From: Candidatus Zhuqueibacterota bacterium | Lineage (GTDB): Bacteria; Zhuqueibacterota; Zhuqueibacteria; Residuimicrobiales; Residuimicrobiaceae | DNA length: 64,000 nt | NCBI GenBank assembly: GCA_963169875.1 | Contig: CAUJEL010000172.1 | Span: 22,460 to 86,459, forward strand | Direction: 5' to 3' | Shown here: positions 44,182-59,369 of the stretch, piece after piece | Layout: each line of letters starts with the position of its first letter | Position numbering within the stretch: the stretch's first letter is position 1 | Made by a program: the position numbers and the translations under genes | The notes under the pieces: generated by a model | What the model saw: the letters and a program-made list of their open reading frames with translations, nothing else | Databases searched by the model: none | What the model was told of the DNA's origin: nothing

Positions 44182-45213
44182 TTAAAAATTGGTGTGAAAC
44201 AGGTGCATGATCCAGAAACACCCGGCCGCAACCAGCGCGGAAAATGGAATCGTAATCACCCAGGAAATCACAATCCGGCCGGCCACGCTCCATTTGATCT
44301 GAGAGGCATGGGTGGTCGAGCCCACACCGACGATGGCGCCGGAAATCGTGTGGGTGGTGGACACAGGGATGCCCATATGGGTCGCCATGAAAATGGTGAT
44401 CGCGCCGGCGGTCTCCGCACAAAATCCATGCACCGGCTTGAGCTGCGTCAGCTTCATCCCCATGGTTTTGACAATGCGCCAACCACCGAACGCCGTTCCC
44501 AAGGCCATCGCTGTTTGACAGGAGAGTATAATCCAACTGGTTTTCATATCCAGCAAGGATAGCTGCGTATCTTTATCCAACATGCCGGCTGCCACCAACA
44601 GGGCCACGATGAGTCCCATGGTTTTCTGCGCATCATTGCCGCCGTGCCCCAATGAATAGAGCGCCGCGGAGACCAGCTGTCCCTTGCGAAAAATTTTATC
44701 CACCTCGTAGGGCCGGCGGCGGCGAAAAAGCCAGTATACCGCCACCATGATGACAAATCCCAGCAGCAAACCCAGCAGGGGTGACAACGGAATGAATTGC
44801 ACCGTTGCCCATACTTTTTCCCAGTTAATGATATCAGTTCCTTTATAAGCAATACCTGCTCCGGCAAATCCTCCGATTAGTGCGTGTGAAGAACTGGTGG
44901 GGAGTCCCAACCACCAGGTTATAAGATCCCAGACGATGGCGCCGAGGAGTCCCGCCAGCACGACATAGATAAACGCGGGATCACCCGCCTGGATGTGGAC
45001 GATTTTCGACACCGTATCAGCCACCCGCGGCATAAAAATGAACATGGCGACGAAATTGAAAAAGGCCGCCCAGATGACAGCCACGCGCGGTGAAAGAACC
45101 CGCGTGGAAACCACCGTAGCGATGGAATTGGCGGAGTCGTGAAATCCATTGATGGTATCAAAAACCAGTGCAATAGCCACGGTCAAAACAACCATTATCA
45201 TGGTAGTACTCAT
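44182..45213 (-). CDS. pit: Inorganic phosphate transporter, PiT family
   Basis: The 343-aa product has about 10 TM helices and the PiT signature 'GFHDSANSIAT'. Confidence 0.9.
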   Translation of the reverse strand: MSTTMIMVVLTVAIALVFDTINGFHDSANSIATVVSTRVLSPRVAVIWAAFFNFVAMFIFMPRVADTVSKIVHIQAGDPAFIYVVLAGLLGAIVWDLITWWLGLPTSSSHALIGGFAGAGIAYKGTDIINWEKVWATVQFIPLSPLLGLLLGFVIMVAVYWLFRRRRPYEVDKIFRKGQLVSAALYSLGHGGNDAQKTMGLIVALLVAAGMLDKDTQLSLLDMKTSWIILSCQTAMALGTAFGGWRIVKTMGMKLTQLKPVHGFCAETAGAITIFMATHMGIPVSTTHTISGAIVGVGSTTHASQIKWSVAGRIVISWVITIPFSALVAAGCFWIMHLFHTNF

Positions 45214-45255: not shown

Positions 45256-45879
45256 TCAACTGGCGGAGATAACCACACCTTCAATGATGTTGGCCACATC
45301 CTCACAACGGTCCACCGATTTCTCCAGGCGCTCGAATATTTCTTTCCATTTTATGATCATGATCGGATCCGATTCCCGGAACAGACGGAACAACGCCGAT
45401 CGCAAGATGTCATCTCCCTGGTTCTCCAGATCATGAATGATATGACACTGTTCGATGATGATCGCACTGTTCTTCAGATTCCGCAAAGCATGAACTGCCG
45501 TTTTGATGCATTCCGAGGCTTTGACCAGCACTTCTGCCAGTGCTTTCGCCTCGGGACGCATGCCCGTGATGCCATAGAGCGCCATGCGGCTCGCGCCGCC
45601 ATCGATGCAGTCGATGATATCATCCATGCGCTTGATCAGTTGATGAATATCCGGACGGTCAATGGGCGTGATGAACGTGCGATGCAGTGCGTCAATGCAT
45701 TGGTGGGTGAGATCATCCGCCTGATGTTCCAAATCCTTGACGCGTTGAACAGCCCCCGGCAATTCTTTCTCTCCGGAAGTCAAACGCAGCAATTCATGAC
45801 ACGTTTCGAAAATAAGCGCTGCGTGATTTTCGAAAAAGTCAAAAAAAGCGTACTCCTTGGGTAAAATACTCTTGAACAT
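45256..45879 (-). CDS. DUF47-family (PhoU-like) PiT-associated regulator
   Basis: It is a helical protein that starts 'MFKSILPKEYAFFDFFENHA'. The DUF47-Pit pairing is conserved. ATG 45879 has a GAGG RBS. Confidence 0.75.
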   Translation of the reverse strand: MFKSILPKEYAFFDFFENHAALIFETCHELLRLTSGEKELPGAVQRVKDLEHQADDLTHQCIDALHRTFITPIDRPDIHQLIKRMDDIIDCIDGGASRMALYGITGMRPEAKALAEVLVKASECIKTAVHALRNLKNSAIIIEQCHIIHDLENQGDDILRSALFRLFRESDPIMIIKWKEIFERLEKSVDRCEDVANIIEGVVISAS

Positions 45880-45898: not shown

Positions 45899-46621
45899 TT
45901 ATGGGTACTCGATAAGATCCGAAATTTTTTCGCGGACGAGAGCTGTGAGTTCTTCCACACTTTTCGATTTGATTTCATCATAGGGGAGCGGTGCACCCAC
46001 TTTCAGGAGGATGGGGCCGGGGCGGACGATCCAACTCACGCGCGATTTGAAGCGGAACAATCCGCTCGTCCCGATGGGAACGATATCCACCCCCGCCATT
46101 TGCGCCAGCCGGAACGGCAGCTTTTTGAAAGGCCCCAGCGCACCGGTGCGCGTGCGCGTCCCCTCGGGCATGATGATGATGGATTTGCCAGCCCGGATAT
46201 CTTCTGCCGCGCGCTCCAGACTCGCCCAGGAGGCATGGGCACTGGCGCGTTCGATGGGGATATTGCCGATGCTGCGAATGAACCAGCCGATGAGCGGCCA
46301 CTTGAACTGCTCGGCAGCCTCCACGCCGCGGGCGAAAAAGGGCAGATAGCCGCCGACGAGCGGGACATCGAACAGACTCACATGATTGGGCATGAAGAGA
46401 TAGGTCTTGCTGCGATCGAGCCGCTCCAACCCTTCAACGCGGACGTGGCCGCCATAGAGCCGGACCAAAAAACGCAACAGCGCGCGGCCCAAATCGTTAT
46501 AAATACGAGGCGGAAACAAGAGCCCCAAAAGCGTAATGAATAAAAGGACTGGAATGGTGATGATCAACCCATAGGTCCAGATTATGACCGCAAGAATGAT
46601 CTCTGATATACGTTTCATCAT
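45899..46621 (-). CDS. plsC: 1-acyl-sn-glycerol-3-phosphate acyltransferase family (PlsC-like)
   Basis: It carries the 'NHVSLFD' H(X)4D motif and the 'MPEGTRT' motif, with an N-terminal TM helix. Confidence 0.8.
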   Translation of the reverse strand: MMKRISEIILAVIIWTYGLIITIPVLLFITLLGLLFPPRIYNDLGRALLRFLVRLYGGHVRVEGLERLDRSKTYLFMPNHVSLFDVPLVGGYLPFFARGVEAAEQFKWPLIGWFIRSIGNIPIERASAHASWASLERAAEDIRAGKSIIIMPEGTRTRTGALGPFKKLPFRLAQMAGVDIVPIGTSGLFRFKSRVSWIVRPGPILLKVGAPLPYDEIKSKSVEELTALVREKISDLIEYP

Positions 46622-47886
46622 GAGCGCGTTAACCCCGTCTTGTCTGTGCGCTGCTGCCGGTAATTGCGCGCCAATTCCATGAAAATCTCCACATCGCTCT
46701 CAAAGTTGCTTTGCAAACCATCAAAATAGAGAACCCGCAGCGGAAATTGCCCCAAATCCTCGCTCACCCGCGGATAGACCGATTCGCAGACAATGCCATT
46801 CATGCAGGTGAAGGGGCTGATATCGATAACACCATCGGCGCCCTTGCGCTGATACCAGATGGCTTTGCCCACGGATATGACCATCTCGCCATGGGCGCCC
46901 TCCCGCGGCAAATAAGGCCTGCTGAGATCGAGCACCTGCGTGATATGCTTTGGCTCGGGATAATCAAAAAAATCTTCGCGGAAAAGGGCCAGCATGGCGG
47001 CTTCATCGGCATGCATCACTTTTTGCCGGATTTTCGCTATCATCATGCTTCCGGAAAAGCGCTTGCCCTGCCGGATCAGACGTTTTTCCTCTTCATCGTT
47101 GGTATACCACACCCATTCGGAGACATCGGACATCCACGCTTCACCGCCGTACTTTTCGATCAAGCGGATGAGGTAACTATTGGAGTAATCATTCAAACGG
47201 CAAAAAATTTCTCCGACGATGCCAATGAGGAGTTTTGGCTTTCTGCGATCCATTTCGACGGTCCTGAAGGCATCGCGCGCGGCAGTGAGAGCGCGCAGGA
47301 TCTCTCCCATGCGTTTTTTGTGAGAAATAGCGGGCAACGCCAGGGCTTCGCAGACGCGATTCAACGACGCCTGAAAAATGCGATCGCTCAATCCCTTTTC
47401 TTTTTCATAAGGCCGTGTCTTCAGCAGCATCTTGCGCATGATGTCCGAAACGATCACCGCCCGCCAACCTGTGCGCACCAATTCCCGGGCGCCCTTGCCG
47501 ATGTCCTGGTACCCATTTGAACTGGTCGGTGACAGAATGAGGACCTCGTCCTCGCCGCGATCCGCAAATATTTTACGCGCCAGCGGCAGATAATGACCAA
47601 AGCGGCACGGGCCATTGGAGGTCGGCAGCAAAAAAGCGGTCCTGGCCGGATCATAATCCGGCATCTCGGTCACCTTGAGAAAACTCCCCAGCGTGATTGC
47701 TTCAGGCAGGCACTCATCACCGCTGAGATATTTCCGGGCCAGATCATCACTGTGCGCGTCGCTGTCCGGAGATGGATAAGCCTCGATGCCGATGGACCGG
47801 AACGCAGCCGCCATGCACAGCGCGCCTTCGTAAGACATCTGCGGGATATAGAGCCTGCGGCCCTGCAATGTTTTTGTCCGCTTCAT
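46618..47886 (-). CDS. 2-hydroxyacyl-CoA dehydratase / benzoyl-CoA reductase-family subunit-like protein (HgdB/BcrC-like, DUF2229-type)
   Basis: The 422-aa product resembles the HAD/BCR family, with conserved Cys residues including 'SNGPCRFGHY'. It overlaps plsC by 4 nt and lies 5 nt from the upstream activase-fusion gene. Confidence 0.55.
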   Translation of the reverse strand: MKRTKTLQGRRLYIPQMSYEGALCMAAAFRSIGIEAYPSPDSDAHSDDLARKYLSGDECLPEAITLGSFLKVTEMPDYDPARTAFLLPTSNGPCRFGHYLPLARKIFADRGEDEVLILSPTSSNGYQDIGKGARELVRTGWRAVIVSDIMRKMLLKTRPYEKEKGLSDRIFQASLNRVCEALALPAISHKKRMGEILRALTAARDAFRTVEMDRRKPKLLIGIVGEIFCRLNDYSNSYLIRLIEKYGGEAWMSDVSEWVWYTNDEEEKRLIRQGKRFSGSMMIAKIRQKVMHADEAAMLALFREDFFDYPEPKHITQVLDLSRPYLPREGAHGEMVISVGKAIWYQRKGADGVIDISPFTCMNGIVCESVYPRVSEDLGQFPLRVLYFDGLQSNFESDVEIFMELARNYRQQRTDKTGLTRS

Positions 47887-47890
47887 CCCG

Positions 47891-50800
47891 TTACCTCATC
47901 TCACTTAAGACAGAGGTCAGCCGTGAAGCATGCTGCAACAGACCCTTGCTCTGCAGATAGGCTTCACAACGCGTCATGATACCCGCATCATTGCCGTGCT
48001 CATCGAATTGCAGGGTGAGAAATGGCGCGCCCAGGGCCTGTCGCATGAAATGTTTGATGTAGGAATCAGGCCCGCATTTGAAATTGGTGAAGTAAATCAC
48101 ATGCAAATTTTTATTCCGGCTGATGAAAGTAGCGGCCTGGAGGATGCGGCGTCCATAATTCCAGAACATATTCTCATGCACGGGCTGCACATCGATGCCC
48201 TCATAGGAAAGAAAATCCATGGGAATGACATCGATGCCATAGTGGGTACGCAATTTGCCGGGAACGTTCAAATTCAGTCCCGGATCAAAAACATTATAAG
48301 GCCGGCCAATGAGCACCACAGCTCTCCCTTTGCCTTGCTCCAGTTGGGACAAGGTGGATTGTCCCGCGGCCTTGATGGAGCTCCAGAACTGCGCCTGCAC
48401 GGCATAGGCCATCTCCACGGCGCGGCGATTGCGCTCTGCGCGGATGCCCAGCATTTTCGCCATGGGAGCTAATGCCTGAATCACTGCTTCCTGACCATCA
48501 CGAAATCGCACCACCGGTGAAAGTATTTTCTCCTGCCACGTTAAATGGTAAAAACTATTTTTCAAAACCAGCGGCAGCGTCTGCCCCCAGGGACAATACC
48601 ACGATTCGGTCTGCGGCGAATCGGTTTCCGCATTGATGGCGTTGGGCATAAAAACATAGTCCACCTCCTTTTGCAGCAGATCGACCACATGTCCGTGCGC
48701 GGCCATGATGGGAAAGCAGGGTTCCGCGATGGTGTGCTCGCGCCCCCAGGCGATAATCTGTCGATTGGTGGGTTCGGAGAGTATCAATTCAGCGCCCAAT
48801 TCAGCGAAATAAGCGCGCCAGAACGGAAAACGGTCAAAGAAATACATGGCGCGGGGGATGCCTATTTTCACACCCAACCCATCCGGTCCGGGCACATCGC
48901 GCACCAGCTGTTCCTGATACAGGGTGACCAGATCAGGCGCTGTCGCCCGCTGTCCGGTCCTGGCTTTCTGGCGGTAACGCTCGGAGCACTTGTCGCCCCA
49001 ATAGGTCTTTTGACCGTTGACAATGACTTCCTGCATATCACACTGGTTGGAACAGGCCTTGCAGGTGAACTGGCGCACGGTGAACTGCACGGCATTCAGG
49101 TCAAAACCATGGAATCGGCTGAGGGCGCTACTCTGCTGCATTTTCAGTTTTGCCAACAGCGCTGCGCCGATGGCGCCCATGACGCCGCAGTGCGGTGGAA
49201 CAATGATGGATTTTCCCAGGGTTGCGGTGAACGCCGCGGCCACCGCTTTATTATAAGCCGTTCCCCCCTGAAAAAAAATCACATCGCCGATCTTGCGGCC
49301 GCGAACCACACGATTCAAATAGTTCTGCACCACAGCGAAGGCCAGACCGGCGGCGATATCTTTTTTCGCCATGCCCTGCTGCAGGAACGCGGAAACATCC
49401 TTCTCCATAAATACCGTGCAGCGCTCACCCATGGCCAGCGGCGCAGCGGATTGCATGGCCAGATTCGCAAATTCGTCAATGATCGATATCCCCAGTTTGT
49501 TGGCCTGCTCTTCCAGGAATGATCCGGTGCCGGCTGCGCAGGCCTCATTCATGGTGAAATCAACCACCACCCCGTCCTCAATGGAGATGAATTTGGAATC
49601 CTGGCCGCCAATTTCAAATATCGTATCAACCGAAGCCCCGCCCAACTGATCCGCAATAAAAGCCGCGCCGGTCTTGTGCGCCGTGATCTCATCGTTGACG
49701 GTATCTGCGCCCACCAGCTCCCCGATCATCTCTCTTCCGGATCCAGTCGTGCCCACACCCAGGACTTCGATTCGGTGCGCCCATTTCTCCTGCCAGCCGC
49801 GCAGTTCGCGGTCGACCACCTCGACCGGTTTGCCTTCGGTCCGGGTGTAAATTTCATCAATGAGCATACCCTGGGCATCCAGTAAAACAAGATTGGTGCT
49901 GACCGAGCCCACATCAATGCCAAGATATACACCGATGCGGTCGTTCCCGGAAGTGGTTTCACAAAACTGATGCAGCTTTTCCGGAAAACGCACGCGGGAG
50001 AGTTCCAGTCGCTGTGAACGCCTCTTATCCGTCAGGCCGGCGCTGTCCAGATGGTCAAACTGATCGATATGTTCTTGAGTTAACAGGGCCCCATCTTTCA
50101 GCGAGGCACACCCCAGCGCGGTTGCAAAAGCGTGCAGGACCGGAACGATCAATTCACCCGGCCCAAAACCGAGCACATCGGCCATTGCATCCACAACCCC
50201 TTGATTGGCGGCGACGCCACCCACAAATACGGCCGGTCGCGTCAACGTCTTGCCCCGCAGTACTGTGCCTTTATAATTTCGCACCACGGCTTCACAAAGA
50301 CCCTTGAGAATGGCGCCCGGCGAATAGCCGCGCTGCTGAGCATGCACCATATCCGATTTGGCGAACACGGAACAACGGCCTGCGATATTGGCGGCTTTTC
50401 CGGCTTTGCTCACCAGGGCGCCGATATCCGCCACTTCGAGGCGCATGCGGGCGACTTGCTGATCGATGAATGAACCGGTGCCGGCGGCGCAATCTCCGTT
50501 GCGCGCGTAATCGATGATGTCCAGATGACCGGTCTCCGCATGAAACGTGATCTGCAAGTAACGCGAACCATCTCCGCCGATCTCCAGGATGGTTCGGGCT
50601 TCAGGGACCAGCTCGGCAACCCCTCTGGCCAACGCCTTGAATTCATTGACGTGGGGAAGACCCATGGATTGAGCGATGTATTTTGCATTGCTGCCGGTGA
50701 AGAGCAAGCGAAGATGAACCCGGCTGCCAGCCTGATTTTTCAGCTCTTGAAGGAGCCGGCGACAGAGTGGCAGCGGCTCGCCCAATACAGGCAAATGACA

Positions 50801-50956
50801 CCCATACCATGCGCCGCCGCTGGTGGCTTGCAACCGCATGAAAGGAGCCTGCAACATCACAGGAATATCTTCCGTCGTTGACGGCACAAACATCACCATC
50901 TTGGCGGCCACGGAACCGATATCAAAGCCTGCACGGATTTCAGGTATAGAAGACAA
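47891..50956 (-). CDS. Acyl-CoA dehydratase activase-type fusion: two BadF/BadG/BcrA/BcrD-type ATPase domains plus a C-terminal HAD/BCR-like (DUF2229) domain
   Basis: Two actin-fold ATPase modules start at 'GFDIGSVAAKMV' and 'GIDVGSVSTNLVLLD'. Each is followed by a 'CAAGTGSF' segment, which is a plausible [4Fe-4S] helix-cluster-helix Cys pair. The C-terminal roughly 400 aa are HgdB-like. The product is 1021 aa. Confidence 0.75.
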   Translation of the reverse strand: MSSIPEIRAGFDIGSVAAKMVMFVPSTTEDIPVMLQAPFMRLQATSGGAWYGCHLPVLGEPLPLCRRLLQELKNQAGSRVHLRLLFTGSNAKYIAQSMGLPHVNEFKALARGVAELVPEARTILEIGGDGSRYLQITFHAETGHLDIIDYARNGDCAAGTGSFIDQQVARMRLEVADIGALVSKAGKAANIAGRCSVFAKSDMVHAQQRGYSPGAILKGLCEAVVRNYKGTVLRGKTLTRPAVFVGGVAANQGVVDAMADVLGFGPGELIVPVLHAFATALGCASLKDGALLTQEHIDQFDHLDSAGLTDKRRSQRLELSRVRFPEKLHQFCETTSGNDRIGVYLGIDVGSVSTNLVLLDAQGMLIDEIYTRTEGKPVEVVDRELRGWQEKWAHRIEVLGVGTTGSGREMIGELVGADTVNDEITAHKTGAAFIADQLGGASVDTIFEIGGQDSKFISIEDGVVVDFTMNEACAAGTGSFLEEQANKLGISIIDEFANLAMQSAAPLAMGERCTVFMEKDVSAFLQQGMAKKDIAAGLAFAVVQNYLNRVVRGRKIGDVIFFQGGTAYNKAVAAAFTATLGKSIIVPPHCGVMGAIGAALLAKLKMQQSSALSRFHGFDLNAVQFTVRQFTCKACSNQCDMQEVIVNGQKTYWGDKCSERYRQKARTGQRATAPDLVTLYQEQLVRDVPGPDGLGVKIGIPRAMYFFDRFPFWRAYFAELGAELILSEPTNRQIIAWGREHTIAEPCFPIMAAHGHVVDLLQKEVDYVFMPNAINAETDSPQTESWYCPWGQTLPLVLKNSFYHLTWQEKILSPVVRFRDGQEAVIQALAPMAKMLGIRAERNRRAVEMAYAVQAQFWSSIKAAGQSTLSQLEQGKGRAVVLIGRPYNVFDPGLNLNVPGKLRTHYGIDVIPMDFLSYEGIDVQPVHENMFWNYGRRILQAATFISRNKNLHVIYFTNFKCGPDSYIKHFMRQALGAPFLTLQFDEHGNDAGIMTRCEAYLQSKGLLQHASRLTSVLSEMR

Positions 50957-51289
50957 TTTCGTTTCTCGTCATTTGAGAATAATTTAGCAGTTCATTGGTT
51001 TTGTTTTGTGCAAAAGGGCCAAGAAATGCCGGTCAGCTTTGAGGCATCCGGCATGCTGCTCCGGTTTAACCAGGTTGGGGAAATATAATATACAAAAGCT
51101 GTTCGAATCTTTCAAGCGGAAATATCGGGCTGGGAAAGAGGATAAATCCTTGCAAATAGGAGTTCACTCTAAAAAACCACTAAATTCGCTAATTACACCA
51201 ACGGCAACGATCCTAAATTGACATAAAACAATTCATGCAAATTCGTTTAATTCGTGGTTGAGGCTTTTTAGAATAGACTCAATTTTGAA

Positions 51290-56996: not shown

Positions 56997-57145
56997 GCCG
57001 GCGCGCCAAAAGATGGTTACCTCATGACAGAGGGAGATGGAACCATTTAGCAAATAGGTGATCGAATGACCGTGGTTAATGGCTTCTACGCAAACGCGTC
57101 TATATGCTACCGGCGCTAAAAGATGGTTACCTCATGACAGGGGGT
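56997..57145. repeat. Two direct copies of a roughly 36-bp element, spaced 110 bp apart, in the region upstream of phoU
   Basis: Copy 1 is CCGGCGCGCCAAAAGATGGTTACCTCATGACAGAGGG (about 56997-57035). Copy 2 is CCGGCGCTAAAAGATGGTTACCTCATGACAGGGGG (about 57109-57145). The minus strand of each contains CTGTCAT. Confidence 0.6.
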
Positions 57146-58658: not shown

Positions 58659-59369
58659 CTAATATCCCCACAGCGATTCGGAGCGGATTCGTTCCGCGGC
58701 AACGCCCTTTTCCCGCAATTGCCCCGTGAGCGCCTCCACCATCTTTGGCGGACCGCAGAGGAAAAACGTCGCGTCCTCCGCGCCGGGCGCCCGTTCAAAA
58801 GCCAAATCTGCGCTGAGCCAGCGCCGCTCTCCGCGCCATTCGTCTCCCGCCGGCAGCTCGGTCATGGTCGGGATGTAATGTAAAAACGGCGCCCGCTTTT
58901 CATATTCCAGAAATAGTTCATGATAGGCGCTGGTCTCGGGGCGGGCATTACCATAGAGCAGCGTAATCCGGCCCTTTGTTCCAATCCGCAGGGCATGGCC
59001 GAGCATGCTGCGAAACGGCGTGATGCCGATGCCCCCGGCCATATATATGGCGTTCTCCAGAGCCGCATCGTAGATAAAATTTCCCTGGGGTCCAAGATAC
59101 TCAAATTCCGCGCCGGTTTCGATCTCCAGCAGGGTACGTTTATAGCCGCTCTCACTGATGCGCGTTGCAATGTGAATAACCTGTTCCTCGGGCGAAGAGG
59201 CAATGGTGAAGGTTCGGCGCGGACCTTTGCTGTCTTCGTACTTTAAGGCCGGCACTTTCAGATTGATATTCTGCCCGGCTGCAAAAACAAAATCCTCCGG
59301 TTTGTGAAAGGCCAATTCTATTGTGCCTTGCGCAATCTGCCGTTGTCCGATATACGTGAGAGTCTTCAC
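58659..59369 (-). CDS. FNR-like FAD/NAD(P)-binding oxidoreductase
   Basis: It carries 'RTFTIASS' (an RxYS-type FAD motif), 'MAGGIGITPF' (NAD binding) and 'FLCGPPKM'. Confidence 0.7.
   Translation of the reverse strand: MKTLTYIGQRQIAQGTIELAFHKPEDFVFAAGQNINLKVPALKYEDSKGPRRTFTIASSPEEQVIHIATRISESGYKRTLLEIETGAEFEYLGPQGNFIYDAALENAIYMAGGIGITPFRSMLGHALRIGTKGRITLLYGNARPETSAYHELFLEYEKRAPFLHYIPTMTELPAGDEWRGERRWLSADLAFERAPGAEDATFFLCGPPKMVEALTGQLREKGVAAERIRSESLWGY

Follow-up and report, generated by a model that had tools for sequence, protein, structure and literature searches.

PlsA and PlsR, known from C. perfringens (CPE1194/1195; Jackson et al. 2021), turn the ester at sn-1 of diacyl lipids into a vinyl ether; the lipid is reduced twice, by one electron each time, then protonated and dehydrated (PMC8788747, PMC9702350). 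Fused PlsA-PlsR proteins occur in Listeria, Enterococcus and Bifidobacterium (PMC12838417, PMC9702350, PMC8788747), and the Listeria plsA/plsR orthologues are reported to be active under anaerobiosis (PMC9702350). Ger (glycerol ester reductase) is a PlsA-like fused enzyme; the Ger proteins of T. maritima (Tmari_0479) and D. alkenivorans (SHJ90043) give saturated 1-alkyl ethers in E. coli, under anaerobic conditions only (PMC13159169). A BBD core, which consists of two activase domains and one reduction domain, is reported for all Ger and PlsA homologues (PMC13159169), and according to two recent papers the two types are inseparable from sequence (PMC13274423, PMC11868695). Here, these systems are compared with three adjoining genes, referred to as plsA-like, plsR-like and plsC-like, in a 64,000-nucleotide (nt) stretch of DNA from Candidatus Zhuqueibacterota bacterium (assembly GCA_963169875.1, contig CAUJEL010000172.1, positions 22,460 to 86,459 of the forward strand). 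This whole stretch is called the window below. We consider it probable that the locus encodes a two-subunit, ATP-driven Fe-S glycerolipid ester reductase of the PlsA/PlsR-Ger family together with a PlsC-type acyltransferase. This reading is based on the BBD core, collinearity with known proteins, conserved cysteines, the predicted fold of the second subunit, the pairing of the two genes across genomes, and the lipid-related genomic context.

The window pair has the split two-gene layout of C. perfringens PlsA/PlsR, a similar size, and the same order of domains, in which two activase domains and a DUF2229 domain are followed by a second HAD-like subunit. It differs from that family in the hosts of its clade, which are uncultured FCB-group, Acidobacteriota, Planctomycetota, Thermoleophilia and other lineages, and in the PlsC that follows the window pair. 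The BBD core is shared with Ger; however, each validated Ger enzyme is one fused polypeptide (BBDHDDH or BBDHDHDH) whose C-terminal D and H sub-domains are detectable with Pfam, whereas the second module of the window is a separate gene product that has no Pfam match. With the 2-hydroxyacyl-CoA dehydratases (HAD) HgdAB/HgdC and HadBC/HadI, class I benzoyl-CoA reductases (BCR), and the double-cubane reductases DCCP/YjiM with DCCP-R/YjiL, the window pair appears to share an ATP-dependent activase with a bridging cluster and the fold of the 422-amino acid (aa) second protein. In contrast to those systems, the catalytic modules of the window lack similarity to theirs, the activase is a tandem fused to one catalytic module rather than the separate homodimeric activator of HAD enzymes, and the genomic context is free of CoA-ester metabolism genes.

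Organization of the locus

All three genes are encoded on the minus strand, and their open reading frames coincide exactly with those listed in an earlier note on this DNA, which was made from the sequence alone:
47891-50956, minus strand: plsA-like gene, 1021 aa, TTG start (open reading frame call)
46618-47886, minus strand: plsR-like gene, 422 aa (open reading frame call)
45899-46621, minus strand: plsC-like gene, 240 aa (open reading frame call)

The three reading frames are real genes and not chance: homologues number in the thousands, with identities of up to 92-97%, and an identical protein occurs in anaerobic reactor or sediment samples such as JGI 3300010429. A gap of 4 nt separates the plsA-like and plsR-like genes (TAAcgggATG, with GAGG upstream), and the plsR-like and plsC-like genes overlap by 4 nt (ATGA); the packing of both junctions is consistent with translational coupling of the three genes. 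An ATG start was considered for the plsA-like gene and rejected, since the ATG found nearby belongs to another frame; translation is therefore taken to begin at the TTG or close to it. When the plsA-like protein is aligned with a Listeria protein, residue 7 is the first to be matched.

The large subunit

The 1021-aa protein contains two BcrAD_BadFG stretches (Pfam, E 6e-66) followed by DUF2229 (PF09989, residues 697-915, E 1.7e-55), in agreement with the two activase modules and the dehydratase-like domain that the earlier note had described. Its parts, in order along the protein, are as follows:
50087-50938, minus strand: activase (BcrAD_BadFG) domain 1, approximately residues 7-290, the first Pfam stretch, with C156 and C195
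49151-49924, minus strand: activase domain 2, residues 345-602, covering Pfam profile positions 1-271, with C473 and C513
48986-49063, minus strand: CX2CX3C...C motif (C632, C635, C639 and C657), between the activase and reductase modules
48212-48868, minus strand: DUF2229 (Red1) reductase-like domain, Pfam residues 697-915, with C747, C788, C961 and the clade-specific C997 (the fold continues past the Pfam boundary, to about residue 1003)

Sequence searches of the PDB matched the large protein in its activase domains only (HgdC, HadI, MbdQ/P and DCCP-R), with 27-32% identity to HgdC, HadI and MbdQ. Residues 92-286 of the first activase match MbdP (PDB 9gai_C), and G10, D12, G14, E125, G127, G246 and G247 of this domain are invariant. 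The second activase matches HgdC (1hux) with E 1.7e-30, and Foldseek aligned it with MbdQ, HgdC, HadI and DCCP-R at TM 0.80-0.87. Among NCBIfam models, only TIGR00241, a generic activase model, recognizes the large protein; the benzoyl-CoA-reductase equivalogs (BcrA-D, BzdNOPQ) score 90-128 bits, against cut-offs of 313-578, and align with the activase domains only. The AlphaFold2 model of the 1021-aa protein has a pLDDT of 84. When the whole model was used in Foldseek, ASKHA and activase matches dominated, and nothing was found on the DUF2229 domain. The four-cysteine motif between the modules is a probable additional Fe-S or Zn site.

The second subunit

The 422-aa protein had no match in Pfam (even at E 10), in NCBIfam, or in the PDB, which was searched with both the single sequence and a 40-sequence profile. 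Neither its sequence nor its profile is similar to solved HAD, BCR or DCCP catalytic subunits, PF06050 (HGD-D) does not match it, and the profile of its clade matches E. coli YjiM with an E-value of only 0.68. Its relationship to these enzymes emerged from structure prediction. An AlphaFold2 model built from 40 homologues has a mean pLDDT of 89.2, and the first 17 PDB hits of this model in Foldseek are all catalytic subunits of the HAD/BCR/DCCP type, including DCCP (7yyl and 6eno), HadBC (3o3m), BzdNO (8s02) and MbdON (9gai). These hits have a probability of 1.0, TM values of about 0.4-0.5 and about 12% identity; the top match is DCCP, at about 12% identity and TM 0.44-0.47. By predicted fold only, the 422-aa protein is a second HAD/BCR/DCCP-fold subunit, and it is called Red2 here. 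The labels "HAD/BCR-family" and "HgdB-like", given to it in the earlier note, are therefore supported at the level of the fold but not at the level of sequence models. Grouping with fermentation dehydratases or benzoyl-CoA reductases, which the same note had named as the outcome that would speak against a PlsA/PlsR-type enzyme, was not seen: the proteins have no sequence affinity to HadBC, BzdNO, MbdON, DCCP or YjiM.

Red1 and Red2 may be paralogues. A profile-profile alignment of the two (hhalign) is weak, with E 0.039 and a probability of 1.3%, but it pairs C59 with C747 and C94 with C788, and sub-threshold DUF2229 matches occur on some other PlsR-type proteins of the clade. Both observations fit a paralogous origin.

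Collinearity with PlsA/PlsR-type proteins

Evidence for the family assignment came from comparison with five reference systems from Listeria, Fusobacterium, Collinsella, Haliovirga and Acetoanaerobium. These were obtained by tblastn of a plasmid collection, which returned homologues in chromosomes mislabelled as plasmids. The Listeria monocytogenes reference is a fused protein of 1475 aa, the Fusobacterium animalis reference is a split pair of 975 aa and 404 aa, and the Collinsella, Haliovirga and Acetoanaerobium references are fused proteins. Residues 7-989 of the large window protein align with residues 2-962 of the Listeria fusion (28% identity, E 6e-110), and the 422-aa protein aligns in BLASTP with residues 1003-1252 of the same fusion (E 4e-25). 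The 422-aa protein also aligns in BLASTP with the C-terminal module of the Haliovirga and Collinsella fusions and with the Fusobacterium PlsR. The profile of its clade extends these matches over the whole module, spanning residues 1005-1400 of the Listeria protein (E 1e-41), 1044-1438 of the Haliovirga protein (E 7e-41), 1067-1424 of the Collinsella protein (E 2e-33) and 4-400 of the Fusobacterium PlsR (E 1.5e-36). By this end-to-end collinearity, the window pair corresponds to a PlsA-PlsR fusion divided over two genes. The window has three features of PlsA/PlsR (tandem BcrAD_BadFG domains followed by DUF2229, an adjoining collinear PlsR-type module, and the Fe-S cysteines) as well as the BBD core of Ger as Pfam detects it. 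The earlier note's placement of the proteins within the HAD/BCR superfamily, on its PlsA/PlsR-type branch, is upheld by the collinearity with the Listeria fusion and the Fusobacterium split pair.

Two variants from other bacteria are described here for their architecture. The closest named relative of the large subunit, at 34% identity, is a 1282-aa BBD protein encoded on Paraclostridium bifermentans plasmid pHD0315_2-2 (109 kb; locus L001, 5881-9729), next to genes for a Crp/Fnr regulator and an ABC transporter. It was rejected as a reference on two grounds: the four-cysteine motif is absent, and the C-terminus matches neither the 422-aa protein nor PlsR-type modules. In Monoglobus pectinilyticus (locus L003, 6010-9227), the system is fully split into three consecutive genes, which encode a DUF2229-like protein (330 aa), a PlsR-like protein (408 aa) and just one activase (331 aa).

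Conserved cysteines

Cysteines were compared in alignments of 30 large-subunit sequences and 28 Red2 sequences, references included. C156 and C195 of the first activase, C473 and C513 of the second, and C747, C788 and C961 of DUF2229 are invariant in all 30 large subunits, and C59, C94 and C361 are invariant in all 28 Red2 proteins. The linker cysteines C632, C635, C639 and C657 are present in 29 of 30 large subunits, including all five references, and are absent only from the Paraclostridium 1282-aa variant. Hence, of 14 proposed ligands, ten occur in every sequence and four in 29 of 30, in both the window's clade and that of the references, and the conservation of Fe-S cysteines that the earlier note had proposed to check was found. 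The pattern suggests a bridging [4Fe-4S] cluster in the tandem activase, a three-cysteine cluster in each HAD-like module, and an additional four-cysteine site between the activase and reductase modules.

Three further cysteines distinguish the window from the PlsA/PlsR references. C221 and C997 of the large subunit and C229 of Red2 are conserved in the window's clade and absent from all five references. In the secondary structure of the Red2 model, C229 lies in a loop between a strand (219-225) and a helix (233-245); C94 and C361 lie in similar strand-to-helix loops.

A separate environmental clade

A scan of species-representative genomes returned at least 598 relatives of the 422-aa protein, of which the best 80 were used for all synteny counts. 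The best 80 all come from metagenome-assembled genomes (MAGs), of KSB1/Zhuqueibacterota, Calditrichaeota, Latescibacterota, Acidobacteriota (Bryobacterales, Terriglobia), Thermoleophilia, Planctomycetota, Gemmatimonadales, Poribacteria, Nitrospinota, NC10, Eisenbacteria and others. The plsA-like gene is directly upstream of the plsR-like gene in about 70 of these loci, across many phyla; the conserved unit is the plsA-like and plsR-like pair. Neighbour-joining trees of both proteins group the window with KSB1-type sequences, in a clade that shows 46-73% identity to the window proteins and is clearly apart from the Firmicutes, Fusobacteria and Actinobacteria references. Among named matches, the nearest are from 'candidate division KSB1'. 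On these trees, the window pair falls in a separate, large, environmental clade of PlsA/PlsR-like enzymes. The pair thus appears, from its sequence, to belong to a known, if poorly mapped, enzyme family and to a clade of it that has not previously been characterized. The wide distribution is in keeping with published work, in which Ger homologues were already reported across the FCB superphylum, Calditrichaeota, Acidobacteria, Planctomycetes and other groups (PMC13159169).

A proposed mechanism

In the following scheme, the identity of the lipid substrate, the path of the electrons, the part played by PlsC and the type of product are all inferred. The fused activase domains of the 1021-aa protein would form a pseudo-dimer with a bridging [4Fe-4S] cluster on C156, C195, C473 and C513. 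ATP hydrolysis would then drive a low-potential electron through the four-cysteine motif to the clusters of Red1, on C747, C788 and C961, and of Red2, on C59, C94 and C361. The electrons would probably come from ferredoxin or flavodoxin, perhaps reduced by an FNR-like enzyme. Following the published PlsAR scheme, the sn-1 acyl ester of an assembled glycerolipid would undergo two-electron reduction and dehydration to an alk-1-enyl ether; in a Ger-type case, the end product would be a saturated alkyl ether. The coupled PlsC would most likely acylate the sn-2 position of a lyso or ether-lyso glycerolipid, feeding or remodelling the lipid pool.

The PlsC-type acyltransferase

The earlier identification of the third gene product as a PlsC-type acyltransferase stands: the protein matches PF01553 (Pfam, E 1e-25), and its translation has the HX4D and EGTR blocks of PlsC/AGPAT enzymes (H80-x4-D85 and P152-EGTR) as well as an N-terminal hydrophobic segment like their membrane anchor. 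It remains below the curated thresholds for 1-acylglycerol-3-phosphate acyltransferases, with 78 bits against 103 for TIGR00530 and 34 against 501 for PRK15018. It is unlike other PlsC/AGPAT proteins in that, in KSB1 lineages, its gene comes behind those of an ether-lipid-type reductase within one operon. Among the relatives examined, PlsC follows the pair only in KSB1-type genomes, where it does so in three genomic contexts: between pstSCABB and DUF47-PiT (the window and loci L006-L009, L013 and L089), after NadA (L016 and L097), and after Peptidase_S8 (L098). The persistence of the linkage across three neighbourhoods argues for a functional link within the KSB1-type lineage. PlsC-like orthologues with 44-49% identity were also seen in Acidobacteria and Marinimicrobia MAGs (L099, 6060-7708; L100, 6114-7708), where they overlap a DAGK_cat/YegS-type lipid-kinase gene by 4 nt and form another conserved pair of lipid genes.

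Tes, MMPL and FNR-like neighbours

Evidence for a lipid context also came from more distant relatives. A radical SAM protein homologous to Tes adjoins the pair, or the plsR-like gene alone, in 10 of the 80 loci (L051, 2093-3697; also L083, L080, L090, L071, L062, L087, L077, L076 and L064). The match to the archaeal tetraether synthase GDGT-MAS/Tes is full-length, with E 1e-136 to PDB 7tol, and the host MAGs belong to Gemmatimonadales, Acidobacteriota including Bryobacteraceae, Planctomycetales and Phycisphaerae. Solibacter usitatus, of the Bryobacterales, contains saturated mono-, di- and tetraethers and is without ElbD, and PlsAR and Tes homologues have been proposed to act there (PMC10087280). 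The Tes-linked context of the window's relatives points to saturated ethers. Since Tes homologues adjoin the genes in Bryobacteraceae, other Acidobacteriota, Gemmatimonadales and Planctomycetota, and given the ethers of Solibacter usitatus, the product is slightly more likely to be a saturated alkyl ether than a vinyl ether. In four Thermoleophilia MAGs (including L072, 9243-11789), a gene for an MMPL transporter is directly downstream of the pair, which suggests that the lipid product is exported or flipped.

One further neighbour may bear on electron supply:
58659-59369, minus strand: FNR-like FAD/NAD(P)-binding reductase (tblastn, 46% identity to the L010 protein)

The L010 protein has NAD_binding_1 and FAD_binding_6 domains (Pfam), and an FNR-like gene is directly upstream of the plsA-like gene in L010, L011, L014, L017 and L018. 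In the window, the FNR-like gene is separated from the plsA-like gene by Peptidase_S8, phoU and pstSCABB, whereas in L010 and L011 it stands directly before the plsA-like gene in loci without phosphate genes. Comparison with L010 indicates that phosphate genes were inserted in the window on both sides of an ancestral FNR-plsA-plsR core. The FNR-like enzyme is a candidate electron-input partner.

Phosphate genes and regulation

Between 44182 and 63276, the minus strand of the window carries, in order, PGM, RNase R, FNR-like, Peptidase_S8, PhoU/LMWPc, pstS-C-A-B-B, plsA-like, plsR-like, plsC-like, DUF47 and PiT. The features that adjoin the lipid genes are as follows:
45256-45879, minus strand: DUF47/PhoU_div gene (Pfam), starting 19 nt past the plsC-like stop
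44182-45213, minus strand: PiT phosphate transporter (Pfam), after the DUF47/PhoU_div gene
51087-51115, minus strand: promoter-like site TTGAAA-17-TATATT, sigma-70-like (consensus scan, 10/12), in the 333-nt gap between the plsA-like gene and the upstream pstB

The DUF47 and PiT genes are probably on the same transcript as the lipid genes, and the order with DUF47 and PiT is the same in L006-L009, L013 and L089. Flanking phosphate transporters are confined to loci in which the 422-aa protein has 74-97% identity to that of the window. The gap upstream of the plsA-like gene contains a block, GATAWTTCCGCTTGAAA...TAyTTTATA, that is kept in L006, L009, L013 and L089, where the plsA-like protein has 65-92% identity to that of the window. 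Since the promoter-like site is inside this conserved block, the lipid genes probably have their own promoter. Upstream of phoU-pstSCABB, a 19-nt sequence, CTGTCATGAGGTAACCATC, occurs in two exact copies 110 nt apart (57012-57030 and 57122-57140, minus strand), where zero matches are expected by chance. It contains CTGTCAT, an E. coli Pho-box half-site, and could be an operator of the Pho type or else a small repeat element. A Pho-box-like element was looked for upstream of the plsA-like gene, and the 19-nt repeat does not occur there, which leaves no direct evidence for Pho control of the lipid genes.

Alternative explanations

Several observations weigh against a glycerolipid ester reductase. 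Identity to the references is low (BBD part, 26-28%; Red2, 17-21%), and the comparison set consisted of the five references, with the validated proteins Q8XL48/Q8XL47 (C. perfringens), Q835P9 (E. faecalis) and the Ger enzymes AGL49404 (T. maritima) and SHJ90043 (D. alkenivorans) outside it. The best structural match of the 422-aa subunit, DCCP, is a small-molecule reductase, and the clade-specific cysteines C221, C997 and C229 could mean a different cluster make-up and a different chemistry. The genomic context is also uneven: PlsC follows the pair in 3 of the 80 genome loci, the rest having the pair without PlsC; in other phyla, a DAGK/YegS lipid kinase is the partner of the PlsC orthologues; and neither Tes nor another dedicated ether-lipid gene was found in the 64-kb window by tblastn. 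The argument of the earlier note that coupling to PlsC implies a lipid substrate is accordingly sound in part, in that the lipid context is real (PlsC in KSB1-type genomes, Tes and MMPL in distant relatives), but PlsC itself is lineage-specific.

The locus might specifically encode a plasmalogen (vinyl-ether) synthase, with an alk-1-enyl ether as the end point of the reaction, which is the case for C. perfringens PlsA/PlsR. The split layout, with genes of 3066 and 1269 bp, resembles the 4.2-kb C. perfringens plsA-plsR operon (PMC12838417) and the Fusobacterium pair, every shared cysteine is conserved, and the species that encodes the collinear Listeria protein produces plasmalogens (PMC9702350). 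We nevertheless regard this possibility as doubtful: the clade of the pair is separate from all five references, it has additional cysteines, it is linked to Tes homologues in lineages with saturated ethers (PMC10087280), and, according to the literature, sequence cannot separate PlsA from Ger (PMC13274423, PMC11868695). For the same reasons of clade and family, the name plasmalogen synthase, used in the earlier note, is too specific. A greater departure from the ester reductase would be a radical reductase or dehydratase of the HAD/BCR/DCCP type that acts on an acyl-CoA or another small molecule, with PlsC as an incidental neighbour. Such an enzyme would account for the structural matches of the 422-aa subunit to DCCP, HadBC and BzdNO and for its being named by no sequence model; most relatives have no adjoining PlsC, and the clade-specific cysteines may indicate a different cluster. 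It is very improbable, however, given that solved HAD, BCR and DCCP catalytic subunits and YjiM show no sequence or profile similarity, whereas full-length matches to the PlsR-type module reach E 1e-41. In the loci examined, no CoA-transferase, fermentation or aromatic-degradation genes were seen nearby, and the recurrent neighbours (PlsC, Tes and MMPL) are lipid-related.

The flanking genes of the window suggest a further interpretation, in which the module is a phosphate-starvation lipid-remodelling unit co-regulated with pst and pit, and the acyltransferase acts on a phosphorus-free lipid in the manner of OlsA. The module is between pstSCABB and DUF47-PiT on one strand, with only 19 nt from the plsC stop to the DUF47 start, the layout recurs where the 422-aa proteins are 74-97% identical to that of the window, and the acyltransferase has weak NCBIfam matches (47 bits) to lyso-ornithine-lipid acyltransferases. 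A phosphate-starvation role is thus suggested by flanking genes in close relatives only. We consider it unlikely, since the module occurs without phosphate genes in L016, L097, L098, L010 and L011, it has its own conserved promoter-like block, and the Pho-box-like repeat of phoU/pst is absent upstream of the plsA-like gene. Moreover, the OlsA scores are far under the cut-off of 300, and no OlsB was seen.

Implications

Ether lipids and branched tetraethers made by bacteria find wide use as climate proxies. To our knowledge, the producers of these lipids and the route by which the ether bonds are formed have yet to be settled. The locus described here bears on how producers are recognized in genomes. 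Ger/PlsA matches in MAGs that comprise only the BBD core have been read as being without a second reduction domain (bioRxiv 10.64898/2026.06.23.733905). The present results show that, in the window's clade, the adjoining gene supplies this second reduction module; in the window protein, no Pfam model detects it. Because Pfam is blind to Red2 of the window, surveys based on Pfam architecture may misclassify such loci. The repeated adjacency of Tes homologues in the clade provides genomic support for the route through PlsAR and Tes that was proposed for Solibacter (PMC10087280).

A more speculative proposal, which we hold to be improbable, is that the chemistry of the clade has been adapted to saturated alkyl ethers by means of C229, C997, C221 and the FNR-like partner, and that it constitutes the missing ether-bond step in the synthesis of diethers and tetraethers of the brGDGT type. 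If this were true, the clade would provide the ether-bond step in Acidobacteriota, Planctomycetota, Gemmatimonadota and their relatives, and the KSB1 version would be linked with a PlsC of its own and, in the lineage of the window, with operons for phosphate transport. On the reading of the pair as a glycerolipid ester reductase, the window adds an uncultured KSB1-like lineage to the likely producers of ether lipids.

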